Positions 10,346-54,643 of a stretch of DNA of 64,000 nucleotides are shown piece after piece (within the stretch, counting starts at the first letter, position 1; every line of letters starts with the position of its first letter). A program made the position numbers and the translations under genes. Source of the stretch: an uncultured Candidatus Saccharibacteria bacterium (GTDB taxonomy: Bacteria > Patescibacteriota > Minisyncoccia > Phycocordibacterales > UBA12088); contig CAYPBQ010000004.1 in NCBI GenBank assembly GCA_964409035.1, positions 7,687 through 71,686 on the forward strand, written 5' to 3'. The notes under the pieces are model-generated. The model saw only the letters and a program-made list of their open reading frames with translations. It was not told where the DNA came from and ran no database searches.

Positions 10346-10349
10346 TGAT

Positions 10350-37251: not shown

Positions 37252-37953
37252 ATGATAGTAACAAAGATACAGATAGTACTTAAAGATGCGGGCATAGCTA
37301 CGCTCTTGTTGGCTATACTAATCTACACAAGCTATCTAATGCTTGAGCCAAAAATTTCCGGTGCGGTGTCTACATCGGAGCAGTTTACCGTGTCACTTAC
37401 GGTAGCTGAAGAAATATCATTCTTTACTCCACCTGCAGATGTATCTCTCTCTCCAGCACTCTCTGGACTAACGGGAGGAACAGCAAATGGTGGTACACAA
37501 GTAAGAGTGTTAACCAACAATGCGACTGGTTACCAAATGTCGCTTAAGGCAAGCTCATCGCTTGGGATGATAGGACACAGTAATGGTGGGGTTATTCCTG
37601 CGCTTGTACCAAGTGTCGGCACTGTTCCTAATTTCAGCTTTGATAGCGGGACGGTAGCAGCAAACACTACTCGGTTTGCGTATTCAGTAGAGGCAAGTAC
37701 TACTGCTGATCTTGATCCTTCGTTCAAGGACAATGGATCTGCATGTAATACAGGCAGCTCAGATACTGCAAACAAGTGTTGGTTAAATGCAAGTACTACT
37801 CCTGAAGTAGTAATAAATAGAACCACCATCACGCCAAATTCAGGTGCGACTACTACCATAAAGTTTAGAGTGGTGATGCGTAGCAACCCTTCTCCACTCA
37901 TTCCTAACGATACCTATACCGCTACCACAACACTTACCGCAACCACTAATTAG
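37252..37953 (+). CDS. Secreted surface protein (233 aa), paralog of 38950-39738; possible WxL-like C-terminal domain
   Basis: SD GAGGA 4 nt upstream. N-terminal signal anchor. Shared motifs with the paralog: TGGTANGGTQV...TGYQMSLKA / TGGTANGSTTANV...TGYELKIKA, and C-terminal KCWLNASTTPEVVI / TCWDPVTTSDVVI. Confidence 0.5.
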   Translation: MIVTKIQIVLKDAGIATLLLAILIYTSYLMLEPKISGAVSTSEQFTVSLTVAEEISFFTPPADVSLSPALSGLTGGTANGGTQVRVLTNNATGYQMSLKASSSLGMIGHSNGGVIPALVPSVGTVPNFSFDSGTVAANTTRFAYSVEASTTADLDPSFKDNGSACNTGSSDTANKCWLNASTTPEVVINRTTITPNSGATTTIKFRVVMRSNPSPLIPNDTYTATTTLTATTN

Positions 37954-37955
37954 TT

Positions 37956-38948
37956 ATGTATCGCATACTCATTGCACTTCTTATACCGTTTTCCATCACT
38001 GCGTTTTTAGCGGTGCCTATTGTTGGTGCACCGACTCCGGTTATATCTGAAGAGACAGTGCTTGCGATAGATGATTTGCCTTCAGACGAAGTATTTGGTG
38101 ATTTTGTGGTGGGTCCAGGAAAGGTGGATGTACTTCTTGCGCCTGGCGCAACCACCACTGTGTATCTTCGAGTATCGAACAGAATGGGTGACGATAAAAT
38201 GTTCAATGTAGAGGTAGAGGACTTTGCAGGAACGCAAGATCCCAACCAAACAATCGTACTTTTGGGAGATGAGCGTGGACCTTACTCTCTTAAGGATTAT
38301 GTGCGACCAGCAACAACAACCTTTCCGGTTGATCACGCAACAAGGGTTACTATTCCGGTAACTATTACTGTTCCATCTGACGCAGAGCCAGGGGGTAGGT
38401 ATGGCAGCGTACTTATTAGTACTGTGTCAAAAAATGCTGATGTTGGGGCACGTGATGGCGCGCAAAGCGGCGCGGCAATTGTATCAAGAATAGGCGTACT
38501 CTTTTTTGTTCGTATAGAAGGAGAAGCAGTTGAAGAGGGTAAGCTTACATCTTTCGACACAAAAGATTCACGCCGATTATTTCAAGGTGGAGAGATTCCT
38601 CTTGAAATCTTGTATGAAAACACCGGATCGGTACACCTAAATCCTTATGGCTACATCACTATAAAAAATATATTTGGTGAGGTTATAGGAGCACAAGAAC
38701 TTGATCCTTGGTTTACACTTCCAAAGTCATTGCGTTTGAGAGAGGTGACGTGGGAACGAGCACTTCTTGTTGGTAGGTATACCGCCGAGCTGCAGCTTAA
38801 TAGGGGGTATGACGATATTGTTGAGAGTGCGAGTGTTTCTTTCTGGGTGATACCTATAAAGATGGTTGTGCTAGTACTTTCTGGACTATTCATCTTAATG
38901 ATTATCCTCAGATGGATAACAAAGAATTTTGAGATCAAAAAGAAGTAG
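37956..38948 (+). CDS. Cell-surface protein with N-terminal signal, two beta-sandwich-like regions and a C-terminal TM anchor + basic tail (DUF916/DUF3324-like architecture)
   Basis: Signal MYRILIALLIPFSITAFLAVPIVGA. C-terminal MVVLVLSGLFILMIILRWITKNFEIKKK. Start is 2 nt after the upstream stop. Confidence 0.45.
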   Translation: MYRILIALLIPFSITAFLAVPIVGAPTPVISEETVLAIDDLPSDEVFGDFVVGPGKVDVLLAPGATTTVYLRVSNRMGDDKMFNVEVEDFAGTQDPNQTIVLLGDERGPYSLKDYVRPATTTFPVDHATRVTIPVTITVPSDAEPGGRYGSVLISTVSKNADVGARDGAQSGAAIVSRIGVLFFVRIEGEAVEEGKLTSFDTKDSRRLFQGGEIPLEILYENTGSVHLNPYGYITIKNIFGEVIGAQELDPWFTLPKSLRLREVTWERALLVGRYTAELQLNRGYDDIVESASVSFWVIPIKMVVLVLSGLFILMIILRWITKNFEIKKK

Positions 38949-38949
38949 T

Positions 38950-39738
38950 ATGCATATGTTCTTTATTGCAACACGCAATCGAATACTGAGAGGGCTTGCA
39001 TCTTTGATTGTGACGGTACTTCTTTTTGGATTTTCTACTCACCTTGGTAGGGCTGCGGTAATGCAAAGCAGTAACTATAAAATTGAGCGCGACAGTATAA
39101 ACACTGGCGGAGCACTTGGTGAATCAGGAAGTTACTCAATGGAAGATTCTATGGGTGAAGTAGCGACTGGATATTCAGAAAGTGCAACATTCAAATTGCA
39201 CGCAGGATATCAACAGCTTCACGAGGCAACACTCTCATTATCTGGTATGACGAATGTACTACTCACACCAACACTACTACCAATTACTGGCGGTACTGCA
39301 AATGGAAGTACTACCGCAAATGTGTATTCAGATAGTTCAACTGGCTATGAGCTCAAAATAAAAGCTGAGTATGATCCAGCCATGCGCCAATCTGCAACAA
39401 GTAGTTTTGCTAACTATACACCAGCGGGTGTTGCTCCTGATTATGCATTTACCGTTGGTACGCAAGCGGCAGAGTTTGGATTCTCTGCGTATGGAGTAGA
39501 CATAGCAACTCGATACAAAAATAATGGATCTGTTTGCGGAGTTGGAAGTCTTGTTACTGATAGTACGTGTTGGGACCCAGTTACCACTTCTGATGTAGTT
39601 ATCGCACGTAGAACAAGCCAGACAGGTATAGCAGGTATAGCCACCAAAATAAACTTTAGGGCAGTAGTAGCACCAAACGCGAATCCTGCGGAGGGTACGT
39701 ACATAGCTACAACTACCGTAACGTTGGTTGCTATATAA
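38950..39738 (+). CDS. Secreted surface protein (paralog of 37252-37953)
   Basis: See the paralog. ATG at 38950 chosen, right after the upstream TAG. Confidence 0.5.
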   Translation: MHMFFIATRNRILRGLASLIVTVLLFGFSTHLGRAAVMQSSNYKIERDSINTGGALGESGSYSMEDSMGEVATGYSESATFKLHAGYQQLHEATLSLSGMTNVLLTPTLLPITGGTANGSTTANVYSDSSTGYELKIKAEYDPAMRQSATSSFANYTPAGVAPDYAFTVGTQAAEFGFSAYGVDIATRYKNNGSVCGVGSLVTDSTCWDPVTTSDVVIARRTSQTGIAGIATKINFRAVVAPNANPAEGTYIATTTVTLVAI

Positions 39739-39743
39739 AGACA

Positions 39744-41069
39744 ATGAAGAATGTTCTTTTACAATTTTTTCTTATCGTACTCATTATCTTCTTAGCTCCT
39801 CGCTATGCTGAGGGGCAAGGGAAAACCTTCGAAGTATCTTTTGAAGTAACTGATGGTATTGCATCTACTACTGTTATTTCTAATCCTCCACCAGGCGGCG
39901 GGCCACTTCCAGTACAGCCACAACCTATATTTATTGATATAGCGGTAGAGGCAACTACTGATTCTTCAGAAATATTCTGGAGCACAAATCCACACACAAG
40001 AGGAATAATCATGTGGGGTGCAACTCCAGACTTAGAGCTCGGATCAATCAGCGCTCCTCTATATAATAGAGAGCATACTACATTTATAGAGTCTCTTGTT
40101 GAGCAGAAAACCTACTACTTTCGGATTATTGCACAGGATGGCTTTGGAAATCTGATTGACTCTGGAGTTATCTCCTTTGTAACCAAGGGTAAGGATGACG
40201 TGCTATCGCCATCAAATCCTATTACCTTCACTGCAAAAGCAGAGGGTGTTGCGATTCGCCTTGATTGGCAAAATCCTTCCGATGAAGATTTTCGCTCGGT
40301 GCGAATTATTAGGAGTCCACTATTCTATCCCGCAGATATCGTAGATGGGGCGCTTGTATACGAAGGGTCTTTAGAGACATTCCTTGATACAGATGTGGTT
40401 ACTGACACCCGCTACTATTACACTTTGTTTGCAAAGGATGCTGCTGGTAATTACTCATCAGGAGTTGTTGCTGACGCGATCATCTTTGGAGATGGAGGTA
40501 TTGGAGAAGTACAAAAGCCATTTGAAAATCTTCCAAATGCGCCAATAGTACACCCACAGTTACAATCGATCACACTCTATGATCTTGAATATATTCAAAA
40601 GGGGATATTGCTTCCTGTCTCAAGTACCTCACCTCGAATATATATAGATGGAGGATATGACCTGTTAGTGAGGCTTGAGTACGGAAAAGTTCCTGAAGTG
40701 TTAAAGACTATTGCGATCACAATCACTGATCCGATTGAAAAAGACAAACACTTTTCTTTTCTTCTTCGAGTGAATAAGGATAAGTCGTACTATGAAGCAC
40801 GACTTTCACCACTTGAGAGGAAGGGGGTATACGAATTCCTTTTTGCAGTTCTTGATTACAAAAATCAAAACCTAAAAAAGCTGTACGGACAATTTATAGT
40901 TGATAAGGTTTCCTCGCTTATCACTGTCGTACGAACATCTCCCACACTTACTTACGCGCGTACTGCCCTCATGAGCTTCTTGATGCTCTTTATGATCTTC
41001 ATTATTGCCTGCCTAAGAAGAAGACAACAATTTACTGAGGAGTTACCACAATCATGCAATCGTTGCTAA
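39744..41069 (+). CDS. Secreted fibronectin type III domain protein with C-terminal TM anchor
   Basis: Signal peptide. FWSTNPHTRGIIMWGATPDLELGS...KTYYFRIIAQDGFGN is an FN3 / purple-acid-phosphatase-N-like fold. A second beta domain follows, then C-terminal TM MSFLMLFMIFIIACLRRRQQF. Confidence 0.5.
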   Translation: MKNVLLQFFLIVLIIFLAPRYAEGQGKTFEVSFEVTDGIASTTVISNPPPGGGPLPVQPQPIFIDIAVEATTDSSEIFWSTNPHTRGIIMWGATPDLELGSISAPLYNREHTTFIESLVEQKTYYFRIIAQDGFGNLIDSGVISFVTKGKDDVLSPSNPITFTAKAEGVAIRLDWQNPSDEDFRSVRIIRSPLFYPADIVDGALVYEGSLETFLDTDVVTDTRYYYTLFAKDAAGNYSSGVVADAIIFGDGGIGEVQKPFENLPNAPIVHPQLQSITLYDLEYIQKGILLPVSSTSPRIYIDGGYDLLVRLEYGKVPEVLKTIAITITDPIEKDKHFSFLLRVNKDKSYYEARLSPLERKGVYEFLFAVLDYKNQNLKKLYGQFIVDKVSSLITVVRTSPTLTYARTALMSFLMLFMIFIIACLRRRQQFTEELPQSCNRC

Positions 41070-44000
41070 AAACAACCGCATATATAGTTAATTTCATACT
41101 GCTTTTTGAAGCGGTGGTTTTTCCATTTTCATACTCTACCGCACAGGCGCAAGTTGCATTTACTCGTCAAATCAATTACCAGGGTAAACTCACTGATACA
41201 GTGGGTGGAGTAGTTGCTGATGGTAATTACAATCTTCGTTTCAAATTGTATACATCTGCAACTGGTGGCTCGCCAATATGGACTGAAACATGGTGCTACT
41301 CACCAAATGCTGGAATAACTTGTAACGGTACTGGAGTAAACAACAGACCAGCGCTGGTTAATGGATTGTTTTCAGTAATGCTTGGCTCAACCACTGCTCT
41401 TACTAGTATTAACTTCAATCAACCACTCTACTTAGGTGTAGAGGTAGGTGGTACTGGTACTACTCCAACATGGGATGGAGAGATGTCACCACGAAAGCGA
41501 TTAGGCACTGTGCCATCTGCATTTGAAGCAGAAAATGCACAAACAGTAGGTGGTGTTGCATCTTCTTCATTGCTAAGGAGCAACACGAGTGACGCCTACA
41601 CCTCGGGTACACTCACTTTCGATTCAGGGACATCTCTTGTGGTAAATGGTAATGCGACCTTTGCGAGGGCAACTACCACTAATGCAACAACCACTCATTT
41701 ATATATAGGTACGGATGTGTGGCTAAATGGAGAACGTTTTACCGACCTTACGGGTACTGGACTTAAAAATACTGCTGGAGCACTACAGGTTGATGATACC
41801 GTCTTTCTATCTCTTTCAAATTGGTTTGCAACCACCACCGATGCGCTTGATGAGGGATCATCAAATCTTTACTTTACTAATGCAAGAGTGGCTGCGTATA
41901 TTAACGCATCATCAACTATTCCACATGTTGCGGGTGGAGCATTTGGTAACATACTACGTTGGAGTGGCTCTGCATGGCAGAGTGTTGCCACCTCAACACT
42001 AAGGATTGCAATAGGAGATACCACCGGAACTTTATCCGTTGCTCGAGGAGGTACCGGCGCCACTACGCTAACTGGCGTACTTAAGGGTAACGGTACGAGC
42101 GCCTTCACTGCTATGACAGGGACTGCAAATTACGTTACTCGTTGGACTGATGCAAATACGCTTGGTACAGGAGTGCTCTATGATAATGGGACAAATGTAG
42201 GAATTGGAACCACAACCCCAATTGATAAATTGTTTGTGTATGGCGGTGATGTGAGTGTTGGGAAGTCATCAAACACTTCTTTTACAGGAACGCGAATATA
42301 CACAGGCGGAGTTGAGCGAGCACAAGTACTTGCAAACATCGATTCTACCGATGGCGGTAAATTAGTCTTTTATACAAAGGCATCAGGCGGATCAATAACT
42401 GAAGCGGCACGCTTTGACCAAGCGGGGAGAATGTCTATTGGTGTGGGTGCTACTCCATCAGGGCGCCTTCATGTTGCTGGGTCAGGAAATGTGCTTTTCA
42501 TGAATTCGGGCAACACCGGTATTGGCACCACCTCCCCATACGCAAAACTTTCTGTGGCAGGACACGTAGTCGGTGCATACTTCACCGCTACCACTACATC
42601 TACAAGTACATTGCCACGCACCAATATCACCCGCCTCACACTAGGGGGTGACTATGTTACTGATATCACCGGCACTGGACTTTCAGTATCATCTGGCTCA
42701 CTCAATGTATCTGCGGTACCAGCATCAGCTCTCTCACTCACTCAGGGATACACCTATGTGGGCAATGCTTCAAATGTTGCTTCTGCTACGTCGACGTTGT
42801 TTATTTCAACAGCAAAGAATGTGGGAGTGGGGACGACGGTGCCTGCGGCAAAATTGCAGATACAAGGATCAGGGGGAATTGGTCAATCAGTGATGATTGA
42901 TAACAGAGAATTGAAGTTTAGAGGAGATGGAGACGCTCACTACTCTATCTTTGCAAATAGAATAGCAGGAACACTAACCATTGAAGAGACGAGCGCAAAT
43001 GGAGATGTTGGATACGCTGGTTCAGTAAGGCTTGCAATACAGAAGACAACTGGGTATGTAGGTATAGGTACAGATACCCCTTTATCAAAACTTGATGTAG
43101 TTGGTGGTTCTCTTGGAGTACGTTCCTCTACACTTACAAATGGTTCAATTTATATAAATCCAGGTGGATCAGATTATGCGGGGTACATAGATTTTTATAA
43201 GGCAGGACCAACAAGAATCGCATATCTTGGATACAAGGATGGTGGTAGTGGTAATTTGGGATTAAATCTCGAAAACTCCGCTAGCTTTAACATAAATGGT
43301 GGCAATGTTGGTATTGGTACCACTAGCCCTACCGCACTACTTCATGTTCGCAAGGATCAGAATGAGGGAACTAAATCAAGAGTGGTAAACCTTAGTAGTG
43401 GCACCAATGCGTTTTCACAATTTTCAGTTGATGCGCTAGGTGCTAGTCTCTACAACTATGCAATAGGTTCTGGATACACTACTGCAGGACGATACGTAGC
43501 AGCCTCTGGCGCACTTGATGCAGTTGGTGCTGGTGGGCTTAGTATTTCTGCATCTGATGGTTCGGGAGTAATCCGATTTTATACTGCGGGGGATAATGAG
43601 CGACTTCGCATTACTAGCACAGGTAATGTTGGGATTGGCACCACCTCCCCATACGCAAAACTTTCTGTTGCAGGACACGTCGTCGGTGCATACTTCACTG
43701 CTACCACCACCTCAACCTCAACTCTCCCACGCACGAACATAACAAGACTCACACTAGGGGGTGACTATGTTACTGATATCACCGGCACTGGACTTTCAGT
43801 ATCATCTGGCTCACTCAATGTATCTGCGGTACCAGCATCAGCTCTCTCACTCACTCAGGGATACACCTATGTGGGCAATGCTTCAAATGTTGCTTCTGCT
43901 ACGTCGACGTTGTTTATGTCGAGCGCAAGTAGAGTAGGTATCAAACAAACCTCACCTGGAACCACACTTGATGTTGGCGCAAGCACCTTAGATACTATTC

Positions 44001-47000
44001 GCTCGTATGGGGGATTTGTTGGGCACGCATCAGCAAATATAGATGGAACGGGTGCGGCGGCGTACTTCCCAAATGGGCTATATTCAAATGCTGCTACCTC
44101 ATGGATATATGGCAATGTATATTTTTCCGCAGGTGCGTCTGTAATTCAGAGTGATGGGGATGTGGGTATTGGAACTACCAATCCTACAGGTAGATTCAGT
44201 ATTGTGTCGGCTGACTCGCCGTATATGTTTACGGTCTCTGGAGCTTCAAAAGGAGTGAGATTTGAAGGTAACTCAACGGGAGTAATTCTTTCGGGTGTAG
44301 ACAACACGCTGGCATCTTCGTACCAACCACTTTATATGAATGGTAGTTACCTTGGATTTCAAAACAGTACTACCGAAGTAATGAGGATAACAGGAAATAA
44401 AGTAGGCATAGGAACAACAAATCCAAACTATAAACTCACAGTGTCTGCTGGTGATCAAGATGGTATAAGTGTTGTTTCGTCAGGAACAGCTCGAATGGAA
44501 TTTAATCCAGATGGAGGAGGTGCGGTGGTATTTAACAACGCAGATGCGAATGGGTTTTACTTTAATCAAAATGGCACAACAAGGGTTACCTTTGATGGGT
44601 CTGGTAAAGTAGGCATCGGGACAGCGGCGCCTGACACTATTTTACACATTAGCAGCGCAACCCCAGTTCTACGAATAGACGCTTCAAATAACAATGTTGA
44701 TTCAACACTGCAGTTTCTTGGTAGAGATTCAAACAGTGGTCAGACCTCAAAGGTTCAATTCGTACAGGGAGTTACCGAAACAGTAAGTGGTATTGGTGCG
44801 ACGTTAAACATACTCACCACAAAGGAGAGTTCGGGTGGTTCTACTTTCACCTCATCAATGTTTATAAATAAACTTGGCAATGTAGGTATAGCAACAACTG
44901 CGCCCGCATATAAGATGGATGTAAACGGATACATCAATACCTCAGGGATAACTGGTGGATATAAGATGCAAGGTAACACCGTCCTCTATGCTTCTACGAC
45001 CAACACCTCTCTTGCGGTAGGGGCATCGTCTGCTGCTGCATGGATGCGCGCCTCTTCTTCTCAAAAGTACTCGATAGCGATGGGGTATCAAGCGCTTGCC
45101 GCTACTCCAACCGGAAACCCAACCAAAAACACCGCACTTGGTTTCTATGCCTTAAGTGCAAACACCTCTGGAACTCAAAACACATCAATAGGCGCAAATA
45201 CACTTCAACAAAACACCACTGGATCATATAACACTGCAGCGGGCGTACTTTCTCAATACGCCAACACCACCGGATCATACAACACCAGCTATGGCTACGC
45301 ATCTTTGTTTAGTAATACTACAGGAACAGACAACACCGCATTAGGATTTCAATCTCTCTACTACAATACGTCAGGAGTACACAATACTGCTGTGGGTCAG
45401 AATACATTACTTTCAAATACTACCGGATCATATAACAGTGCGTTTGGTCTACAAGCACTCCAAAGCAATACATCAGGAATACACAATACATCGATTGGAC
45501 GCACTTCGATGTATTTAAATACAAGCGGCTCATACAATGCTGCCCTCGGAATGTACGCCCTCTACTACAACACCTCTGCAACTACAAGTACCGCAATTGG
45601 TTGGGGTGCGGGACAAGGATCGACAAATTACTCAAATACAGGAGGTACATATGTTGGATATGCTGCTGGCTATAATTTAGGAAATGCTTCCAACTACAAC
45701 ACGCTCATTGGCCTTCAAACGGGATTCGGCATTACCACAGGAGCGCGTAACACTGTAATCGGCAACAGTACTATTGCTGCTTCATACAATCAAATCACCA
45801 CTGGAAGCAACAACATTGCAATTGGTAATGATGTTGCAGTACCGAGTGCTACCGCATCCAATCAATTAGTAATTGGCAACCTTATCTATGGCACAGGACT
45901 TAGTGGGACAGGAAGCACTGTCTCAACCGGAAGTATTGGTATCGGTATTGTAAATCCGACCGGTAAACTGCAAGTTGTTGGTGATGAGGTGCGCGTGGGT
46001 GATAGCGGATCGGTGGATATTGCGACTGCAGACGGAGATTTATTTGTCGAAGATGATCTTGAGGTTGATGGTGAGATATATGCCTCAACAATTCTCTCTG
46101 GGGATACTAACCTTGTTCCAAATTGGCAATTTGAGAGTGATGGCGCCTGGCCCGACCCTGCTGATACAGTAGAGACAACTTTTATTGATGGAGAATCTAT
46201 AAAGGCGCATCGATCGGTAGAGAGTGGCACGGGTTGTTATGGGTGGGGGCATTCGCCTACATTCTTGGTCAATCCAACTAAAACATATGAATTTAGTGTC
46301 TGGATAAAATCTACCGAGAATGACATGAACAACTACTTTGGATTTTTTGCGTATGACGCAAGTGGTACGCAAATATCTACTTCACCATTTGATAATCCGT
46401 ATTTTAGAGGGGATGAAAATGATCCAAATGAATGGCATAGGTGGAGTGGATACATCATGCCATCATACAGCGACGATAACGCTAATGGTTTTCCTGACGC
46501 AGGAGACTCACCACAAACACGAGGAGTGGATTATTCATGGCCAAGTAACACAGTCTCTGCCAAGGTGCGCTTTGGATCGTGTTATGGCGATGGCTCTAAT
46601 ACAGGCCTATCCTACTTTGCATACCCACAGGTAAAAGAGATACAGCCTGACAAACGCTTTGTAGAGGGTGATCATACAATATACGGGGATCTTGTGGTGG
46701 GACAATCAGGCGCAACAAACAAGGTCGATATTGCAAGTGGGACACGATCAGCAACACACGCGAGCGGGTTACCACTATATGTAACTGGCGATATAGGTGC
46801 CGCATCAAGTGGTATTGAGTTTAGACATTCAAATGGTTCACAAGGCATTGGCTTTGGCTACAATACTATTTATGCTACGGGTAGTAACTCTTCACAAGAG
46901 CTAAACTTTACCACAAAGGGTACTTCCGGCATGCACTTTCAAATTGGAGGAAATACCAAAATGGCTATTAATGGCACGACTGGCAACGTAGGCATCGGCA

Positions 47001-50000
47001 CTACAACACCTGGAGTAAAACTGGATGTTGTCGGCTCGATTCGAGCTTATTCAAATGCGCTTAACAATGCCACTATCGATCAAACAAAGATTGCTTTTAT
47101 AAATACAACAAACACTGCAGCCTTTGATGTTGGATTACTTGGAGGAACATCAGATGCGATTGCCTATCTATACAATCGAGCAAATGCAGCAATGATATTT
47201 GGTACAAACAACTCCTCAAGAATGACAATAGATGGTAGTGGAAATGTTGGTATCGGCACAACAAATCCTGGGCAAAAATTGGAAGTTACCGGTAATACCA
47301 CCATTACCGGCACATTACGCGTTGGTGCCTCAACCGGAGGATCGGGGACTGCTGGAGATATTGTTGCTCGACGTTCAGCAACAACTGGGGCTTATTATTT
47401 TGGGGATTCAACGAGTAATTATCTTTACTTCGATGGTACTAATTACATATTTGGTCTCGGGGGATTGTATGTTAATACCAACGGCAATGTAGGTATTGGC
47501 AACACTTCCCCCTCTCAAAAACTTGATGTTGTTGGCAACATAAAATCAACTGGATACGGTATTTTCCCAACAGGCATAGCACCTGCGGTAACTGGTGCTC
47601 CTGATGGAAAGATATTCTCACCTTCTGGTGACTACCTCGGAGCTACTACTTGGGGTATCAATTATAACGAGGGAACTCCAGATTATATTGAGTTTAATAA
47701 TGCAAGCGGAGCAACATCGAGGATTGCTTTGGATGATGGTAGTGCGCATTTTGCCTTAAGTGGCGGCTCTGTCGGTATTGGAACGACGGCACCAGGAAGT
47801 AAATTGGTTGTTAGTGGCGGCAATGTAACTATTGCTCCTACAGGTTCTGAAATTGCTGCTGGCTATAATCCTTTGTATGTTAATGCGCCTGTAGCTTCAT
47901 CGGTAACAACCGATGAAGAGGTTTCTACGGCTGGTATCAACATAAGAGGCTACGGAGACAATGTGAATTTGCAACTTGGGGTTGGGGGTTCGGCTTTGAA
48001 TTATTCTGGTTGGATACAGGCATCGTATGATAATGGTGGAACTGGAGGAGTAGAGCCACTGTTATTGAATCCTGCCGGTGGCAACGTTGGTATTGGCACG
48101 ACAAGCCCAACAAAAAAACTATCAACCTATCATACTGGTTCACAAAACGGCATAGAGATTGCAGGATATGTTCCTACGCTCTACTTTAGAAATGTCGGGT
48201 ACACGGGTGATCACTACCACATCTCTGTTGCAGAAACTGGAACTAATAGCACTTTTGCAATTAAAAACGAAACAGACGGTACGTACCCATTTGCCATTGA
48301 TGGGGCCGGAAAGGTGGGTATCTTAAATAGCTCTCCTACATACTCACTTGATGTAAGTGGCACCGGAAGATTTACCGACGATCTTTATATGGAGAGTGGG
48401 CTAAAGAGAGAAAACAACTCTCTTGATGATACTGACAGCTCATTATACATGCAGTACTACTCTAGTGGGGGTGGGGTGGTTATCGGTGATAGTGGTGTAG
48501 ATCACGACCTTACTGTGTATGGTACCGGTACATTTAATGAATATATTTATCTTCCTGACTCCAACACGCGCCTTAGTGAAGGTGCGGGTAACGCGCTTAG
48601 AATGCAAACCAACTCTGGATATATTGATATTGGCGCACAAAACACCTCGTACGCACACATTTATACTGATAGACCTGCCTTTTATACTAACGCACCTGTT
48701 CGTGTGCAAGGCTCGTTAAGTGTTGGTTCAGCAACCTATGCGGGAACTGATGCGCCAACAAACGGGGCTATTATTGAGGGAAATGTTGGTATCGGTACAA
48801 CAAATCCTGCATCATTTAAACTACAGGTTGCTGGAAATGTGGGGCCAGAGACAGATGCTACCTATGACCTTGGCTCATCTGCAAAGCGATGGAATAACTT
48901 GTACCTTACCAATGCGCCAATTATTGGTGGATATCACGACCTTACCAACGACAATCTTCTTTCTAATGGAGATTTTGAGACAGGCACCTTTACGGGCTGG
49001 ACTGCCTCGGGCACAACTGGTGTTGTTTCTGCGGGTGCCTATGCAGGAAATTACTCCGCACAGTCAACAGGAAATCAAACAGTGCTCAGTGATGATTACA
49101 TACCAGTTGATCCAGATTACGACGTGCTTCAACTTGAGGGATGGTTTAAAGAAACTACTACTGGTTCGCCAACACCCGGCGTATTGTATTTTGGCTACAT
49201 TGCGTATGACGAGAGCAAGGTAGCGATTACCACTAGCCCATGCGGCACCTATTGTTACTTTGCAGCATCAGGATATAACATTCCTAATGATGGTGCGTGG
49301 CACAAGTTTTCAGCTACCACCAATGGCGAAGGCACCAGTTACCCAAACTTCCCAGTGGGTACGAAGTATGTACGTGTGCTCATGCTTATGAACTACGCTG
49401 CATCATCAAATGAGGTTACCCGCTTTGACCACGTTACCCTCAAGAGAGTTAACAATGGACCTCTCTTTGTTGGAAATAACTTCTCAACAACAAACCTAGC
49501 TGATCAAAATCAGGCTACAAAGCTCTACACTACCGCATCAAATAATTTTGTTATTGAGCCGCCATCCTCGGGTAAGGTTGGTATTGGTACTGCGTCTCCA
49601 CGGCAAAAATTAGAAGTCATTGGTATATCTCAAATTTCATATGCTGACGGCGGTAATGATTTCTTGACCATACAGCCTTATACAGATGGGTACACGTATT
49701 TTAATTCTCATGGAGATGGCGCTGGAGAAGGTGGATTTAGATTTAGAACCAATGATGGAGCTGCAGAGTCTATGGTAATTACACACAGTGGTTATGTAGG
49801 GATAGGGACCACCGGTCCAGGCAACCTCCTTAGTGTAAACCAGGCGGGTAATGCAACAGTGGGTACCGGCACCACTTATGGAATAGCGCTATACAACCAA
49901 GGTACGTTAAACGCAGGGCTTGGCTCTGATGCAAGTAGTGTGTTTTTGCAAAGCTGGGCAGGCAAGCCACTTCATATAAACAATCAAGGCAATAATACGA

Positions 50001-53000
50001 TCCTTAACTATGGAGGTGGGGGCGTGGCAATAGGTGCTCTTTCCTCGCCTAGCTATACTCTTGATGTAAGAGGAGACACGCGTACAAGCAGACTTCGTTT
50101 GTTGGGAGAAGGGACAGATAGCGGACAAAGCAATTGCTACTACTGTATGTATCAAGAGGGTGGTGCATGGAGTAGTCCGTATCCTGACCTGCGCATACAA
50201 TTTCACACCGGAATAAAAATGGAAGCGTACCACGCGTATGGTGGTATTAAGATGTACAACGGATACGATGGGTCTGGTAATCCTGCTGGCCTTGCCTTCT
50301 CAGTGGGAGACGGAGATCAAACGGTGCGCTCGTATCAAAACTTCTATGCACCTATTGTGTATGATCAAGATAATGCATCGTATTATCTTGATTCAAGTGC
50401 AAGTGGTACGAGCCTCAACACCGCCGGCGCGATATACGCAGGGGCAGATGTTATTGTGGGGAATCAAATTGTATTATCTCAAGCAAATGGTACTGACAAT
50501 GGCTCCCCAAGTATTACCCCATTTGCAACAGATGATTTTTCATACGATGGCGATTATTTAAGCCATTACGGCTTTGGTTTTTACAGCAATAGTGGTTCAG
50601 GGGGCACACACGCATACATGAACGGTTACTACGGCCTCGACTTTTTTACCTCAGGCACTAACAGAATGCGAATAAGATCTGACGGCAATATAGGCATCGG
50701 AACAGTCGCTCCTTCAGCAAAGCTCACTATAATTACGAGTAGTGACTCTGCTCCAAGTACTATTAGTGCCTACGACGCACGGCATATCTCGGTTGGTCCA
50801 AGTGTCTCAGATGCTATTGCTTTCTCAAAAACAACAGGAGGTAGTTCATACATCACTTCTCTTCGTCCGGGTGTTGCATGGGACCCTCTTGCAATACAAG
50901 CAAGTACATTCACCTTTAATCCAGGCGGAGGCACTTCTTCTTTTTACATTAATAGTTCCGGCAACATTGGTATTGGGACGACAGGTCAGCAAGAGAAGGT
51001 ACAGATTTTTAAGGATGGTACACCTGCTGAGGGTAACTTTGGTCTTTCTATACTCTCAGCTTCGGCAGATTCAGAGCTTGCACTCGGTGCCTCTGCTTCG
51101 GGGGACTACTCATACATTCAATCATTTTCAGATGGGGTAAGTTGGACAAACAGACCACTTATACTACAACCAAATGGTGGCGCGGTTACAATAGGAGCAG
51201 TAGCTAATCCACGAACAAATACTGTACTAGATGTAGCAGGAGGAATTGGAATGGGACGACTTGGTACGTTTGGTACATATAATTCTTCACAGATACAAGG
51301 TATATGGAGTATTTCTCCTGATTATTTGATTAGCACCGGTTCCAATAATGGAGGCAATGCATACGGCATGGCGTACAGCTACGATAGTAATGGTGTCGGT
51401 ATTTCCGGATATGGTCACCAGATAGTATTTGTCGGAAATGGTACACGATACGCAAGCATTGGTGTTGATTCCGGTCATGCATATTTCGCTGGCAACGTCG
51501 GCATAGGGACGACAGCGCCAGGGGTAAAATTGGATGTTGTAGGAAATATTGCCGTCTCTGGTTCAAATGGTAATAGCATTTATACATGGACAAACTCAGA
51601 CACTAACTGGAGAATGGGTATGTCTAATAGTCCTGGATTCACGAGAGCGCTCGCGACTACGCATACGTCCTATGTGACCTATTCAAATGGAGCTGGGCAG
51701 GGATTTGCGGTTGGGGTAAATGGAGGCAACTCCAGTTTTGAAGTTGCTGGTTCAGATCATACGGCATACTTCAGAGGTAATGTTGGTCTTGGGACGGCAG
51801 CGCCAGAATCTAAACTAGAGGTAAATGGCGGAGCGCTCACTATGCAACGAGACAACGTACTCCATTACAGAAACGTTGTGCACTATCGAGTTAATGCACC
51901 AGATCAGCCAGGCACCATGCAAATCGAGATGCCAAAATTGTGGTCGGACACCATGATAACAGTGACTATTAAGGGGTACGACTATGATGCAAGTGCGGTA
52001 GGGGCAGGAGCGTGGGAGGTGGTGGTAAGTGGCTACAATTATGGTGCTGGTCCTTACTGGGTTAACACGTCAGCAGAGATACGAGGTAACGCTCCATTTA
52101 CACAGGTGCGTCTTGCGCGCAATGGATCTAAAAACGTTATCCTCCTTGGTGATACATCAACAGACTGGGACTACCCACAGGTAGCGGTAACTGATGTTGT
52201 TGCTGGGTATTCATCACAGACAGGGTGGGGTAGCGGGTGGTCTATTTCGCTCCTTAGCTCTGAGGCAAGTATTTCAGTTGTTACCACACCAAACCTTAAT
52301 ATGGGTAGGTTTGCAGATGGTTCAGCGTCAGCACCTACCCTTAGCTTTTTCACTGATACCAATACTGGTATCTATCGCCCAGGTAGCGATATTATTGGCT
52401 TTACCACGGGTGGCACAGAGCGTTTACGTCTAGATGGTTCTGGAAATCTTACCTTCAGTGGGGCAAATCCAACCATACAATCTGGAGGATCATATTTTGT
52501 TATTCCAAACGGTGTTTATTTCTCAGGTGGTACATCTTATTTTCAGACTAATACCAATTTTAGAGCAAACATTCAAAATGATACTGCAGCCTACCTTACC
52601 ATTGCTGGTGGCACTAGTGGCAATACTTACTTCTCTGGCAACGTAGGTATTAATACCAGCGCACCTAGTGTCAAATTGCATGTAAATGCTGGAGCTGCAG
52701 AAGCAATACGCATACAAGGTACTGCGGCATATATGTCATTCTACGATACGGCAGGCAGCGACCGATTTGGCTATATTCAACACACAGGCTCTAACCTGGC
52801 ATTGGTAAACGAAGAAGCAGGAATACTTAGTTTCTATACTTCAAATACCGAACGTGCTCGTTTTGATAGTTCGGGTAATCTTATCTTTAATCGCGTAGGG
52901 ATAGGAGCGGTTGGATCGTATGATGCTACCAAGACGCAGGCAGTGTGGTCTATGGGATCATCGTATGTATTGCCTCCTGATGGCGGAACCACCTCATATG

Positions 53001-54643
53001 GTACTTTGTACGGACTCGGGTGGTCATACAATCCAGACTACGGAGGAGCGGGTAATAACCCTCAATCAAAGGCGGGTCTTAATCATCAACTACTCCTAAT
53101 GATGAATGGTGTCACATATACAGCACTTGGAAATGGTATTTGGACAGCGGGTAAAATAACCACGACTGGAGGTATTGCAAGCTCTGGTGGGACAGTTCTA
53201 TCAAACTATGCTGGCTCAGGAGATATCTGGTTGCCGTACACTGATGGGAATTCATATTTGCGTAGCCCAACAAACTGGGTAACAAATACTATTCGAGCAG
53301 AAAATGGAAATTGGTACTTGCCAAATAGCGGAAGTGCCTATTTCAATCAGGGTAGTATGGGTATTGGCACCACCTCGCCTGTCTCAACTCTTGAAGTCAG
53401 TCGCACTTCTCAAGATAGTAACTCGGTCAACTCATACGGATTTAATGTGACGAATGGTAATGGAAAAATTGGTATGGGATACGACTTGGCGGACAACATG
53501 GCATACATCCAAAGTTATAGATATCTCGTCTCGTGGAATAACCTAGTTATCAACCCACATGGAGGTAATGTTGGTGTTGGCACCATATCTCCTAACCAGG
53601 GCAAGGTAGAGGTAATGGGAGGATCAGTGTGTGTAGATACGAACTCCGATGCTAATGCTTCATCATGTATCGCAAACGAATCCGATGTGCGCTTGAAGAA
53701 AAATATTGAAACACTCTCTGCGAGTTCATCACTTGCAACTCTCCTTACCCTTAACCCCGTTACCTTTGATTGGCGAGTTGACGATCCTGAGGTGCTCTCG
53801 CACTACCCACTTATCTCTCGCTTCGCATCGTCAACACACTCAGTAGGACTTATCGCTCAAGAGGTGCTTGAAGCATATCCACTTGCGATGGGTACAGAGA
53901 CGGTGGGAGATAGTGAGGTGCAATATTTCCAGCTCGATTATGAAAAATTTATACCGCTTATTATTAGTGGTGTGAAAGAGCTTGCAATACGGGTAAATAC
54001 CTTTGGGGATACGCTAACCACACTCACCGGAAAAGTAGATGAGCTTGCCCTTGCAGTTACTACCCTTACCACAAAAGTCGAGGAGGGAGTGATAGCGAGC
54101 GGTAATGTAATAAGTAGCGGTCTATCACAATTTAGCGCGCTGTGGGTGGGAGAGATTGCAGTTGGTACAAGTGAAAAACCAACCGGTATTACTATGTATG
54201 ATGAAGTAACAGGTGAGCCGTATTGCTTTAAGATACGAGAGGGACAGATAGCTACCACTCTTGGTGTGTGTAGTACTATACCTACTGATGAGGATATGGA
54301 TACTGATGCTGATACAGAAGCTCCGATTATTGTGATAATGGGCAATAATCCTGCACAAATTAGTATTGGTGAGACGTATAATGATTTAGGAGTAACGGTT
54401 ACAGACAATATAAACCCAAATGTTGGGTACACTGTATTTGTTGATGGGGTAGAAGTATCAAACATTATGCTCGATACTTCAGTTGAAAGAACATACGAGA
54501 TTAAGTATGTAGCAGAAGATCAAGCAGGGAATATTGGTACCGCAACCAGAACGGTGATAATAGCCCCAATAGAAAATACGCCTCAAGAAGATACAGAGGT
54601 ATCAGATGAGGGTGATGTGCCAGAGGGTACACCATCTGAGTAG
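41054..54643 (+). CDS. Giant (4529 aa) secreted fibre/adhesin-like protein: signal peptide, tail-fibre-like repeats, two CBM4_9-like domains, phage-type intramolecular chaperone (peptidase S74) domain, C-terminal DUF5011 Ig-like domain
   Basis: Signal ...FSYSTAQAQ. More than 15 occurrences of G(N)VGIGTT(S/N)P...KL(D/E)V(V/S)G. 15-aa repeats NTAxGxxALxxNTTGxx (~45127-45600). NWQFESDGAW (46121-) and SNGDFETGTFTGW (48961-) are CBM4_9 hallmarks. SDVRLKKNIETL...LIAQEVLEAYP...QLDYEKFIPLII (53681-54000) is the endosialidase-chaperone domain. MGNNPAQISIGETYNDLGVTVTD (54318-54570) is DUF5011. Confidence 0.8.
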   Translation: MQSLLKTTAYIVNFILLFEAVVFPFSYSTAQAQVAFTRQINYQGKLTDTVGGVVADGNYNLRFKLYTSATGGSPIWTETWCYSPNAGITCNGTGVNNRPALVNGLFSVMLGSTTALTSINFNQPLYLGVEVGGTGTTPTWDGEMSPRKRLGTVPSAFEAENAQTVGGVASSSLLRSNTSDAYTSGTLTFDSGTSLVVNGNATFARATTTNATTTHLYIGTDVWLNGERFTDLTGTGLKNTAGALQVDDTVFLSLSNWFATTTDALDEGSSNLYFTNARVAAYINASSTIPHVAGGAFGNILRWSGSAWQSVATSTLRIAIGDTTGTLSVARGGTGATTLTGVLKGNGTSAFTAMTGTANYVTRWTDANTLGTGVLYDNGTNVGIGTTTPIDKLFVYGGDVSVGKSSNTSFTGTRIYTGGVERAQVLANIDSTDGGKLVFYTKASGGSITEAARFDQAGRMSIGVGATPSGRLHVAGSGNVLFMNSGNTGIGTTSPYAKLSVAGHVVGAYFTATTTSTSTLPRTNITRLTLGGDYVTDITGTGLSVSSGSLNVSAVPASALSLTQGYTYVGNASNVASATSTLFISTAKNVGVGTTVPAAKLQIQGSGGIGQSVMIDNRELKFRGDGDAHYSIFANRIAGTLTIEETSANGDVGYAGSVRLAIQKTTGYVGIGTDTPLSKLDVVGGSLGVRSSTLTNGSIYINPGGSDYAGYIDFYKAGPTRIAYLGYKDGGSGNLGLNLENSASFNINGGNVGIGTTSPTALLHVRKDQNEGTKSRVVNLSSGTNAFSQFSVDALGASLYNYAIGSGYTTAGRYVAASGALDAVGAGGLSISASDGSGVIRFYTAGDNERLRITSTGNVGIGTTSPYAKLSVAGHVVGAYFTATTTSTSTLPRTNITRLTLGGDYVTDITGTGLSVSSGSLNVSAVPASALSLTQGYTYVGNASNVASATSTLFMSSASRVGIKQTSPGTTLDVGASTLDTIRSYGGFVGHASANIDGTGAAAYFPNGLYSNAATSWIYGNVYFSAGASVIQSDGDVGIGTTNPTGRFSIVSADSPYMFTVSGASKGVRFEGNSTGVILSGVDNTLASSYQPLYMNGSYLGFQNSTTEVMRITGNKVGIGTTNPNYKLTVSAGDQDGISVVSSGTARMEFNPDGGGAVVFNNADANGFYFNQNGTTRVTFDGSGKVGIGTAAPDTILHISSATPVLRIDASNNNVDSTLQFLGRDSNSGQTSKVQFVQGVTETVSGIGATLNILTTKESSGGSTFTSSMFINKLGNVGIATTAPAYKMDVNGYINTSGITGGYKMQGNTVLYASTTNTSLAVGASSAAAWMRASSSQKYSIAMGYQALAATPTGNPTKNTALGFYALSANTSGTQNTSIGANTLQQNTTGSYNTAAGVLSQYANTTGSYNTSYGYASLFSNTTGTDNTALGFQSLYYNTSGVHNTAVGQNTLLSNTTGSYNSAFGLQALQSNTSGIHNTSIGRTSMYLNTSGSYNAALGMYALYYNTSATTSTAIGWGAGQGSTNYSNTGGTYVGYAAGYNLGNASNYNTLIGLQTGFGITTGARNTVIGNSTIAASYNQITTGSNNIAIGNDVAVPSATASNQLVIGNLIYGTGLSGTGSTVSTGSIGIGIVNPTGKLQVVGDEVRVGDSGSVDIATADGDLFVEDDLEVDGEIYASTILSGDTNLVPNWQFESDGAWPDPADTVETTFIDGESIKAHRSVESGTGCYGWGHSPTFLVNPTKTYEFSVWIKSTENDMNNYFGFFAYDASGTQISTSPFDNPYFRGDENDPNEWHRWSGYIMPSYSDDNANGFPDAGDSPQTRGVDYSWPSNTVSAKVRFGSCYGDGSNTGLSYFAYPQVKEIQPDKRFVEGDHTIYGDLVVGQSGATNKVDIASGTRSATHASGLPLYVTGDIGAASSGIEFRHSNGSQGIGFGYNTIYATGSNSSQELNFTTKGTSGMHFQIGGNTKMAINGTTGNVGIGTTTPGVKLDVVGSIRAYSNALNNATIDQTKIAFINTTNTAAFDVGLLGGTSDAIAYLYNRANAAMIFGTNNSSRMTIDGSGNVGIGTTNPGQKLEVTGNTTITGTLRVGASTGGSGTAGDIVARRSATTGAYYFGDSTSNYLYFDGTNYIFGLGGLYVNTNGNVGIGNTSPSQKLDVVGNIKSTGYGIFPTGIAPAVTGAPDGKIFSPSGDYLGATTWGINYNEGTPDYIEFNNASGATSRIALDDGSAHFALSGGSVGIGTTAPGSKLVVSGGNVTIAPTGSEIAAGYNPLYVNAPVASSVTTDEEVSTAGINIRGYGDNVNLQLGVGGSALNYSGWIQASYDNGGTGGVEPLLLNPAGGNVGIGTTSPTKKLSTYHTGSQNGIEIAGYVPTLYFRNVGYTGDHYHISVAETGTNSTFAIKNETDGTYPFAIDGAGKVGILNSSPTYSLDVSGTGRFTDDLYMESGLKRENNSLDDTDSSLYMQYYSSGGGVVIGDSGVDHDLTVYGTGTFNEYIYLPDSNTRLSEGAGNALRMQTNSGYIDIGAQNTSYAHIYTDRPAFYTNAPVRVQGSLSVGSATYAGTDAPTNGAIIEGNVGIGTTNPASFKLQVAGNVGPETDATYDLGSSAKRWNNLYLTNAPIIGGYHDLTNDNLLSNGDFETGTFTGWTASGTTGVVSAGAYAGNYSAQSTGNQTVLSDDYIPVDPDYDVLQLEGWFKETTTGSPTPGVLYFGYIAYDESKVAITTSPCGTYCYFAASGYNIPNDGAWHKFSATTNGEGTSYPNFPVGTKYVRVLMLMNYAASSNEVTRFDHVTLKRVNNGPLFVGNNFSTTNLADQNQATKLYTTASNNFVIEPPSSGKVGIGTASPRQKLEVIGISQISYADGGNDFLTIQPYTDGYTYFNSHGDGAGEGGFRFRTNDGAAESMVITHSGYVGIGTTGPGNLLSVNQAGNATVGTGTTYGIALYNQGTLNAGLGSDASSVFLQSWAGKPLHINNQGNNTILNYGGGGVAIGALSSPSYTLDVRGDTRTSRLRLLGEGTDSGQSNCYYCMYQEGGAWSSPYPDLRIQFHTGIKMEAYHAYGGIKMYNGYDGSGNPAGLAFSVGDGDQTVRSYQNFYAPIVYDQDNASYYLDSSASGTSLNTAGAIYAGADVIVGNQIVLSQANGTDNGSPSITPFATDDFSYDGDYLSHYGFGFYSNSGSGGTHAYMNGYYGLDFFTSGTNRMRIRSDGNIGIGTVAPSAKLTIITSSDSAPSTISAYDARHISVGPSVSDAIAFSKTTGGSSYITSLRPGVAWDPLAIQASTFTFNPGGGTSSFYINSSGNIGIGTTGQQEKVQIFKDGTPAEGNFGLSILSASADSELALGASASGDYSYIQSFSDGVSWTNRPLILQPNGGAVTIGAVANPRTNTVLDVAGGIGMGRLGTFGTYNSSQIQGIWSISPDYLISTGSNNGGNAYGMAYSYDSNGVGISGYGHQIVFVGNGTRYASIGVDSGHAYFAGNVGIGTTAPGVKLDVVGNIAVSGSNGNSIYTWTNSDTNWRMGMSNSPGFTRALATTHTSYVTYSNGAGQGFAVGVNGGNSSFEVAGSDHTAYFRGNVGLGTAAPESKLEVNGGALTMQRDNVLHYRNVVHYRVNAPDQPGTMQIEMPKLWSDTMITVTIKGYDYDASAVGAGAWEVVVSGYNYGAGPYWVNTSAEIRGNAPFTQVRLARNGSKNVILLGDTSTDWDYPQVAVTDVVAGYSSQTGWGSGWSISLLSSEASISVVTTPNLNMGRFADGSASAPTLSFFTDTNTGIYRPGSDIIGFTTGGTERLRLDGSGNLTFSGANPTIQSGGSYFVIPNGVYFSGGTSYFQTNTNFRANIQNDTAAYLTIAGGTSGNTYFSGNVGINTSAPSVKLHVNAGAAEAIRIQGTAAYMSFYDTAGSDRFGYIQHTGSNLALVNEEAGILSFYTSNTERARFDSSGNLIFNRVGIGAVGSYDATKTQAVWSMGSSYVLPPDGGTTSYGTLYGLGWSYNPDYGGAGNNPQSKAGLNHQLLLMMNGVTYTALGNGIWTAGKITTTGGIASSGGTVLSNYAGSGDIWLPYTDGNSYLRSPTNWVTNTIRAENGNWYLPNSGSAYFNQGSMGIGTTSPVSTLEVSRTSQDSNSVNSYGFNVTNGNGKIGMGYDLADNMAYIQSYRYLVSWNNLVINPHGGNVGVGTISPNQGKVEVMGGSVCVDTNSDANASSCIANESDVRLKKNIETLSASSSLATLLTLNPVTFDWRVDDPEVLSHYPLISRFASSTHSVGLIAQEVLEAYPLAMGTETVGDSEVQYFQLDYEKFIPLIISGVKELAIRVNTFGDTLTTLTGKVDELALAVTTLTTKVEEGVIASGNVISSGLSQFSALWVGEIAVGTSEKPTGITMYDEVTGEPYCFKIREGQIATTLGVCSTIPTDEDMDTDADTEAPIIVIMGNNPAQISIGETYNDLGVTVTDNINPNVGYTVFVDGVEVSNIMLDTSVERTYEIKYVAEDQAGNIGTATRTVIIAPIENTPQEDTEVSDEGDVPEGTPSE
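42641..42804 (+). repeat. 164-bp perfect intragenic direct repeat, copy 1 (copy 2 at 43754-43917), embedded in ~290-bp homologous blocks whose 5' parts differ at scattered sites
   Basis: Base-by-base comparison of 42517-42810 against 43636-43920. Confidence 0.8.
43754..43917 (+). repeat. 164-bp perfect intragenic direct repeat, copy 2
   Basis: See copy 1. Confidence 0.8.

Follow-up and report, generated by a model that had tools for sequence, protein, structure and literature searches.

The window analysed here is a 64,000-nucleotide (nt) stretch of contig CAYPBQ010000004.1 from an uncultured bacterium labelled Candidatus Saccharibacteria. It contains a cassette of four co-directional open reading frames (ORFs) for predicted surface proteins at 37252–41069, at the positions given in an initial annotation of the sequence. 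All four are on the + strand, as are the features within them. The first gene (37252..37953) encodes a 233-amino acid (aa) protein, small protein 1, which starts with a signal peptide or anchor and continues with a short N-terminal strand and a predicted pilin-like core. The second (37956..38948, 330 aa) encodes protein 2, a WxLIP-type (DUF916/DUF3324) protein that has two domains, a membrane anchor, and a fold like that of chaperones. The third (38956..39738, 260 aa) encodes small protein 3, a distant homologue of the pilus protein PamT with a signal peptide, an extension, and a pilin-like core, and the fourth (39744..41069, 441 aa) encodes protein 4, a candidate PamR-like anchor or terminator with FN3-like domains and a C-terminal transmembrane (TM) segment. 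The next gene encodes a giant tail-fibre-like secreted protein (41054..54643, + strand, 4,529 aa) with Peptidase_S74 and Bact_surface_Ig-like domains. The order set out in the initial annotation, with two small secreted paralogues, a 330-aa protein, and an FN3/TM protein, is confirmed. Its third gene is indeed a small secreted paralogue, but the length of 269 aa assigned to it is not retained. The most likely start is ATG 38956, giving 260 aa, rather than TTG 38929 of the mechanical ORF 38929–39738; the product from ATG 38956 is identical to a database protein (P0121), and the overlap with gene 2 disappears. With this start the successive intergenic distances are 2, 7, 5, and −16 nt, so that the four genes and the giant gene form one tightly packed unit. 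Each of the four proteins has an N-terminal hydrophobic segment, and proteins 2 and 4 have an additional C-terminal TM segment. No usher-like gene is present in the cassette, and a promoter and terminator consensus scan of the region returned nothing beyond chance level.

We surveyed the locus in one genome per GTDB species using two protein 2 peptide patterns, which matched 151 species and yielded 80 retained loci, and we counted co-occurrence over the loci with sufficient flanking sequence. The upstream small paralogue is present in 66/68 testable loci, the downstream small paralogue in 70/75, and the FN3/TM protein downstream in 56/57, in keeping with the original view of the four genes as a module. 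The small–DUF916–small–FN3/TM order and strand are the same wherever the cassette is present, in at least 80 of the 151 matching species, and the recurrence of this four-gene order in about 80 other species is far beyond chance. The labels of these loci are mostly of the Patescibacteria type (Kaiser-, Zambryskii-, Nomura-, Taylor-, and Falkowbacteria, and Paceibacteria), with two exceptions, metagenome-assembled genomes (MAGs) labelled Azotimanducaceae and Nanoarchaeia; many third-party annotation (TPA) genomes among them carry an unconfirmed 'Saccharibacteria' label. The wider synteny is also conserved and comprises Obg, GatB, two proteins with putative helix-turn-helix (HTH) and TM segments, the cassette, GAPDH, and pentose-phosphate genes. 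Therefore, the cassette is a feature of the core genome rather than an island. The guanine-cytosine (GC) content is flat across it, and this, together with the conserved wider synteny, rules out a mobile-island origin.

Protein 2 begins with a signal peptide (aa 1–22) and ends with a basic tail, KNFEIKKK. Between them its AlphaFold2 (AF2) model, with a predicted local distance difference test (pLDDT) score of 88.5, places two beta-sandwich domains, at aa 37–187 (nt 38064–38516) and aa 195–298 (nt 38538–38849), and a TM helix at aa 299–324 (nt 38850–38927; hydrophobicity spans aa 299–317 and the model helix 301–324), in agreement with the layout of signal peptide, two beta-rich domains, TM segment, and KNFEIKKK tail read from the sequence in the initial annotation. 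Domain 1 includes a flexible loop of low model confidence (aa 158–174) followed by an invariant strand, IVSRIGxLFF (aa 175–184), which is the most invariant strand of the family. The DUF916 profile (Pfam PF06030) matches protein 2 over profile positions 20–119/121 with E=0.0039 and 17.6 bits, below the 27.3-bit cut-off, and matches 31/32 family members (alignment A1, n=32) with a best E=9.5e-8. With phmmer against PDB sequences, protein 2 retrieved Enterococcus faecium EfmWxLIP1 (9i25_C, 9i1y_A) at E=4e-5, and the family profile retrieved the same protein at E=3.7e-9. We also aligned the family by hhalign with a reference set of nine WxLIPs and 14 small WxL proteins from Enterococcus, Lactococcus, Lactiplantibacillus, and Listeria plasmids; the match to the nine genuine Firmicute WxLIPs reached 96.7% probability and E=4e-10, with the DUF916 domain alone aligned. 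The second half of the DUF916/DUF3324 pair proposed initially did not emerge as a profile match, with PF11797 (DUF3324) giving no hit to protein 2 at E≤10 or to its 32 relatives at E≤0.01.

Structure comparison extends the relationship over both domains. The best Foldseek matches to protein 2 in the PDB are the WxLIP crystal structures 9i1y and 9i25_C (E=1e-12, 272–276 columns, both domains), with modest template-modelling scores (TM-scores) of 0.38–0.48; 9i25 is a WxLIP solved 'bound to long WxL'. The next match, RbmA, superposes poorly, and after it come the chaperones of chaperone-usher systems, CfaA, CsuC, Caf1M, DraB, FimC, and EcpB, with E values from 1e-8 to 1e-6 and target-normalised TM-scores of ~0.5. 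Protein 2 has more than 1,800 homologues, one of which is annotated as 'DUF916 domain-containing protein'; the few with a named source are from Patescibacteria/Parcubacteria, apart from one MAG labelled 'Azotimanducaceae'. Protein 2 is a genuine remote homologue of the Firmicute WxLIP (DUF916/DUF3324) proteins, and its similarity to them reflects homology rather than convergence or a merely similar layout. Published AF2 modelling of a WxLIP predicts the ordering of an otherwise unstructured hairpin loop, which thereby completes the beta-sandwich of the WxL domain (PMC10599100). The loop and IVSRIGxLFF strand of protein 2 may be the counterpart of this hairpin, as a correspondence of regions rather than of mapped residues. 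Weak matches to the NCBIfam 'choice-of-anchor T family protein' model also occur in 11/32 of the protein 2 relatives in alignment A1, the best with E=0.0016.

Small proteins 1 and 3 are paralogous (BLASTP E=6e-25, 37% identity over 167 aa; hhalign 99.9%). Small protein 3 consists of a signal peptide (aa 1–33), a highly conserved extension with an SxNY-type triple repeat (aa 34–90, nt 39055–39225), and a pilin-like core (aa 91–260, nt 39226–39735) that contains two invariant Cys residues and a C-terminal strand, Y-x-A-T-T-T-V-T. The shared motifs pointed out in the initial annotation, TGGTANG, TGY(Q/E)(M/L), and C-W, are present, and in the alignment of the small protein 3 family (34 sequences), which also defines the two invariant Cys, they are invariant or nearly so. 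In the AF2 model of small protein 3 the core has pLDDT >90, whereas the extension (aa 30–88) has pLDDT <50 and is disordered; columns at least 90% identical in the family make up 37% of the extension versus 22% of the core. The extension thus appears to behave like a partner-dependent segment, since its conservation exceeds that of the rest of the protein although the monomer model leaves it disordered.

The small paralogues had been compared with WxL proteins, with their Cys-Trp motif read as the distal WxL motif. That motif instead belongs to a conserved Cys…Cys-Trp stretch in the middle of the core and not to the C-terminal strand, and the WxL profile (PF13731) matched neither the window proteins at E≤10 nor 34 small protein 3 relatives at E≤1. 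Alignment of the small-protein family with the 14 genuine small WxL proteins by hhalign gave 0.4–0.5% probability; when the core alone was used, the best local match placed the two C-terminal strands in register, Y on Y, at 0.5% probability. Trp is absent at both WxL-motif positions, which read GY(E/Q)(L/M) and Y-x-A-T-T-T instead of GWxL and TLTWxL, and the motif-level resemblance that can be drawn (V-T-D…G-W/Y-x-L; Y-T-x-T-x-T) is without statistical support. The long-WxL chain of 9i25 falls outside the top 50 Foldseek matches of small protein 3. Pfam, hhalign, and the Trp positions together give no support to the small paralogues as WxL-domain proteins, with no WxL domain detectable in them. 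Accordingly, of the suggested cross-phylum occurrence or convergence of a WxL module, the part that stands is protein 2, which is homologous across phyla, and the part left without support is the pair of small proteins.

The profile relationship that was found for small protein 3 is to a pilus protein. In Ca. Mycosynbacter amalyticus, a member of the Saccharimonadia within the Candidate Phyla Radiation (CPR), donor-strand exchange is the means of assembly of the Pam pili, with PamA, PamB, and PamE as pilins and PamT as the tip protein (Troman et al., bioRxiv 10.64898/2026.03.03.709456). The NCBIfam model NF058579, 'CPR-type pilus protein PamT', matches small protein 3 with E=3.5e-11 and 43 bits and matches 33/34 members of the small protein 3 family, with a best E=1.5e-13; the match is full-length in relatives P0326 (positions 26–238/241) and P0321. 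The small protein 3 family is, as judged by these profile matches, homologous to PamT. Its family profile had no match among PDB sequences. Foldseek comparison of the modelled core returned mainly donor-strand-complemented fibre subunits, among them TLP-1b, TasA, CsuA/B, CfaB, CS17, FimG, PapE, the pilin domain of PapG, and Pyrodictium cannulae, with probabilities against these fibre subunits of up to 0.99, and the predicted core therefore weakly resembles the subunits of donor-strand fibres.

Relatives of small protein 3 are modular. An exhaustive profile search found 2,093 representatives of the small-protein family at 50% identity clusters, and we examined the domain composition of the best 149 of these. 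In-frame fusions with the arrangement chaperone–TM helix–signal peptide–small protein 3 account for 16/149 (for example P0247, P0250, P0252, P0255, and the locus L072 at 9980–11704). Other N-terminal domains, including Laminin_G_3, DUF2341, FN3, and Gly_rich_2, precede the small protein 3 module in 24/149, in proteins of up to 2,187 aa, and a domain is inserted between the extension and the core in 9/149. Extended or split modules are found in P0251, P0265, P0296, P0298, P0301, P0350, P0270, and P0321, and the added parts include multiple FN3 domains and long beta-helix-like repeats. The N-terminal part of P0321 has a weak match to the NCBIfam 'TafC family fimbrial protein' model. In the related loci, oversized variants (426 and 617 aa) occupy the downstream position, that of small protein 3, while the upstream paralogues are 209–300 aa long. 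By analogy, the oversized variants would behave as tip adhesins, with a lectin domain joined to a pilin domain, and they also parallel the 'large WxL' proteins. The variable lectin-like domains carried by this tip-type module elsewhere point to diversity in host recognition.

Protein 4 has a signal peptide (aa 1–24), an N-terminal strand FEVSFEVTD (aa 29–37, nt 39828–39854), a Pro/Gly linker (aa 47–62), two FN3-like domains at about aa 64–147 and 155–245, a conserved C-domain, and a TM segment (aa 406–424, nt 40959–41015). The FN3 match is sub-threshold in the window protein and clear in its relatives (PF00041; FN3 region E~1e-22). At 441 aa the window protein is shorter than most relatives, which have about 510–540 aa, because it lacks their first FN3 domain. 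After the signal peptide, nearly all relatives have a strand of the form [DE]xFx[VI]x[QT]x[VI]G, then a DTTPPT.P-like linker, and then FN3. In the Pam system the comparable protein is PamR, which has tandem FN3 domains, a C-terminal TM segment, and an extra N-terminal strand, and is the proposed terminator or anchor of the pilus (bioRxiv 10.64898/2026.03.03.709456).

A strand similar to that of protein 4 occurs near the N terminus of small protein 1 (FTVSLTVAE, aa 45–53, nt 37384–37410), and its best match lies exactly at the position of the protein 4 N-terminal strand. We compared the strands by an alignment-free measure, the mean best BLOSUM62 score, which takes no account of kinship between genomes. 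Strands from the same genome scored 18.9, compared with 15.9±0.6 when genomes were shuffled, where 18.9 was reached in 0/5000 shuffles, and 12.5±0.5 when residues were shuffled. Against the N terminus of small protein 3, which has no such strand, the protein 1 strand scored 10.95. The pairing is visible in individual genomes, with FTVSLTVAE in protein 1 and FEVSFEVTD in protein 4 of the window, and FEIHQTITA and FEVHQNIIL, respectively, in another locus (L011). Similar and co-varying strands in proteins 1 and 4 are what would be expected if both fit one acceptor groove.

Building on the observed homologies, predicted folds, membrane topology, gene order, and strand co-variation, we propose that the product of the cassette is probably a thin and compact fibre, short stalk, or adhesive complex on the surface of a single-membrane CPR cell, assembled without an usher by donor-strand complementation and related to the Pam pilus. 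In this process, all four proteins would be exported by the Sec pathway, and protein 2, held in the membrane by its C-terminal helix, would act as a chaperone of the PapD/WxLIP type, with its loop and IVSRIGxLFF strand temporarily completing the incomplete immunoglobulin (Ig)-like core of the small subunits. Small protein 3, as the PamT homologue, would form the tip, and small protein 1 the shaft, with its N-terminal strand inserted into the preceding subunit. Protein 4 would end and anchor the fibre by placing its near-identical N-terminal strand into the last subunit, with its FN3 stalk and TM segment holding the assembly in the membrane.

Several points weigh against this proposal. Strand insertion, polymerisation, polymer length, subunit order, and an adhesive function with its target are all inferred. 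When the NCBIfam Pam models were compared with the families of proteins 2, 1, and 4 and with the multi-domain relatives, only PamT matched, and the score of small protein 3 itself is far under the equivalog cut-off of that model (43 versus 240 bits), so that small protein 3 is a distant homologue of PamT and not its orthologue. The Foldseek E-values for small protein 3 are weak, at 0.008–0.1. The 64-kb window contains no two-domain major pilin built, like PamA or PamB, of an NTD, a linker strand, and a CTD, and none of the 20 other window ORFs with Pfam results that were examined is an ATP synthase gene. Published work on WxLIPs describes them as stable surface partners and not as chaperones. 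Finally, the strand co-variation was scored with phylogeny ignored, and gene conversion between genes 1 and 4 at their 5' ends could produce a similar signal.

The main alternative, which is the reading of the initial annotation, is that the cassette encodes a static, WxL/Csc-like surface complex. Here protein 2 would be a permanent, membrane-anchored scaffold for one strand-complemented copy of each small protein, with no polymer formed, and the complex together with protein 4 would present binding surfaces, or the giant neighbour, to a host cell or glycan. We regard both the complex and this presenting role as rather unlikely. The complex nevertheless stays plausible because WxLIPs, one of them solved bound to a long WxL protein, are the closest relatives of protein 2 among solved structures and because 1:1 gene fusions of the chaperone with small protein 3 exist, which would suit a stoichiometric assembly. 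The layout also mirrors that of WxL clusters (small WxL, WxLIP, larger protein, small anchored protein); this parallel was drawn in the initial annotation and holds, with a small secreted protein, a WxLIP-like protein, a second secreted protein, and an anchored protein in the same order, and those variants of small protein 3 that carry lectin-like domains are similar to 'large WxL' proteins (PMC10599100). However, the small proteins that such a scaffold would hold have no detectable WxL domain, small protein 3 is instead homologous, by its profile match, to a pilus protein, and the folds that its core matches are those of polymerising fibre subunits. The presence of the same co-varying N-terminal strand on proteins 1 and 4 suggests the formation of a chain and not of one unit bound to the chaperone.

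The giant protein has its own signal peptide, Peptidase_S74 at aa 4210–4277 (E=2.8e-10), and Bact_surface_Ig-like at aa 4427–4503, and the start of its gene at 41054 overlaps the end of the protein 4 gene by 16 nt. It did not match the profiles of alignments A1 and A2, meaning that pilin-like and DUF916-like modules are both missing from it. Its role as a fibre subunit was rejected for this reason, and because the pilin-like module is missing it is probably a separate adhesin. A homologue lies within 10 kb, upstream or downstream, in 17/27 fully flanked loci. Along with the 16-nt overlap and the tail-fibre-like protein that is likewise a central neighbour of pam operons, this association would fit a cassette whose main task is to export, anchor, or assemble the giant adhesin beside it, instead of being a fibre itself. 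Such a task is improbable, as the giant protein brings a signal peptide of its own, self-processes through Peptidase_S74, and has no module of the cassette's kinds; in 10/27 fully flanked loci no giant homologue lies within 10 kb, and its position relative to the cassette varies between upstream and downstream. Within the giant gene, a 95-aa segment occurs twice (42518–42802 and 43631–43915), with 100% aa identity and 20/285 nt differing. All 20 differences are synonymous, which indicates strong purifying selection on the internal repeat and not a recent duplication or assembly artefact.

The broad synteny around the cassette (Obg and GatB on one side, GAPDH and pentose-phosphate genes on the other) and the flat GC could also suit four unrelated secreted or membrane proteins that merely sit together in a conserved core-genome block, but such a coincidence is highly improbable given the nearly invariant four-gene order and orientation in about 80 species, the repeated in-frame fusion of protein 2 with small protein 3, the strand motifs common to and co-varying between genes 1 and 4, and two independent homology links, to WxLIP and PamT, that lead to systems with interacting parts.

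Directly upstream of the cassette are two genes, at 34963–35640 (225 aa) and 36241–37155 (304 aa), with homologues in 33–36/80 related loci. The 304-aa protein has excisionase-type HTH (HTH_17) domains; the 225-aa protein has no Pfam match, and its HTH is an impression from sequence only. Both show an apparent later hydrophobic segment, judged by eye from sequence, and the two HTH-type proteins may be membrane-bound regulators. An adjacent HTH-domain protein is also found in enterococcal WxL clusters. Downstream of the giant gene, four paralogues resembling type IV pilins (N_methyl, E 1e-8 to 1e-10) lie at 54673–55203, 56293–56835, 57292–57795, and 58488–59000 and alternate singly with genes for GAPDH, RpiB, Rpe, and transketolase. 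Homologues of the type IV pilin-like genes occur in 10/80 related loci, and the neighbouring metabolic genes in about 30/80. The upstream half of the window (2175–28526) is rich in envelope-glycan genes, including several glycosyltransferases, a UbiA-family prenyltransferase, MurB, an epimerase fused to a GtrA-type TM domain, and a Wzy_C/O-antigen-ligase-like protein with tetratricopeptide repeats (TPR). SecA is encoded at 29557–32085.

Little is known of the means by which CPR bacteria attach to their hosts. Our literature search found no paper linking DUF916 or WxL to CPR bacteria. The homology of protein 2 connects work on virulence and colonisation by Gram-positive bacteria with WxL proteins (lactobacilli, enterococci, Listeria) to the pili of CPR bacteria, and this link suggests a concrete mechanistic role for WxLIPs, that of an assembly chaperone. 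As a fibre or short stalk, the cassette would be a minimal relative of the Pam system, with one chaperone, two single-module subunits, and one anchor, small enough to make donor-strand assembly without an usher tractable to study. The Pam pilus was first described in 2026, from one cultured species of Saccharimonadia (bioRxiv 10.64898/2026.03.03.709456).

Among known systems, the TasA/TLP fibres of Bacillus provide the top two Foldseek matches of small protein 3 (9ikk, 8aur). They are fibres of single-membrane cells, rely on donor-strand complementation, and have subunits of about 230 aa. In contrast to the cassette, TasA fibres need no dedicated two-domain chaperone, and the resemblance, with E only 0.008–0.014 and a TM-score of about 0.32, comes with no sequence similarity. 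With the chaperone-usher pili of Gram-negative bacteria (Pap/Fim, Csu, CFA/I, Caf1), the fold of protein 2 is like that of periplasmic chaperones and the predicted core of small protein 3 is like that of pilin subunits. The same logic would extend to the N-terminal strands, a tip adhesin composed of lectin and pilin domains, and a terminator subunit. However, the cassette has neither an outer membrane nor an usher, its chaperone would be membrane-tethered, and its putative terminator, protein 4, is itself the membrane anchor; the resemblance is at the level of fold only, with no sequence similarity.

The WxL/WxLIP (Csc) clusters of Lactobacillales and Listeria (Siezen 2006 PMC1534035; Hassan and Williamson PMC9772566, PMC10599100) are connected to the cassette through protein 2, which shares with WxLIPs the signal peptide, DUF916 domain, second Ig-like domain, and C-terminal TM helix. 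The logic of the gene set is also similar, with a small secreted beta-protein beside the WxLIP, a second member whose N terminus can bear large binding domains, and an anchored protein of small size. By definition, a WxL cluster encodes two or more proteins with a WxL domain (PF13731, dual Trp-x-Leu motifs) (PMC10599100), whereas the partners in the cassette lack a detectable WxL domain and the Trp motifs, and they are homologous to the pilus protein PamT. No LPXTG motif occurs in the four cassette sequences; anchoring is by the TM helix of an FN3 protein and not by LPXTG as in the small protein CscD, there is no sortase, and the phylum and the envelope are different.

The Pam pilus, like the cassette, belongs to a CPR bacterium, with all components Sec-exported and no usher. 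Its chaperones, PamC and PamD, are membrane-anchored PapD/FimC-like proteins with a C-terminal TM helix (bioRxiv 10.64898/2026.03.03.709456), and protein 2 corresponds to them in architecture and fold class as a membrane-anchored chaperone candidate with two Ig domains and a C-terminal TM helix. The small protein 3 family is related to PamT by profile homology, and protein 4 resembles PamR, by architecture only, in its FN3 domains, the TM segment that anchors its C terminus, and the strand at its N terminus. The subunits of both systems have paired Cys residues, and in both, conservation peaks in a strand or extension region, which in PamA and PamB is the donated linker (bioRxiv 10.64898/2026.03.03.709456). 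A tail-fibre-like protein is the central neighbour of pam operons, whose conserved neighbourhood also includes ATP synthase genes (bioRxiv 10.64898/2026.03.03.709456), and the giant Peptidase_S74 protein is a tail-fibre-like neighbour here. The two systems differ in that the cassette has one chaperone where Pam has two, that its only subunit-type proteins, in the 64-kb window as a whole, are the two single-module small proteins 1 and 3 rather than two-domain pilins of the PamA/PamB/PamE type, and that the related loci look like those of Paceibacteria (Kaiser-, Zambryskii-, and Nomurabacteria). The Pam preprint mentions neither WxL, DUF916, nor Paceibacteria (bioRxiv 10.64898/2026.03.03.709456). 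Of the systems that the cassette connects, the Pam pilus is a closer known relation than the WxL clusters. We tentatively consider, as a possibility short of an even chance, that the WxL/WxLIP clusters, the Pam pili of Saccharimonadia, and the Paceibacteria-wide cassette are branches of one ancient usher-less donor-strand system with a membrane-tethered chaperone. If so, WxLIP/DUF916 proteins would serve not in host binding but as assembly chaperones of the PapD kind, with WxL proteins as their divergent subunits that accept a strand.

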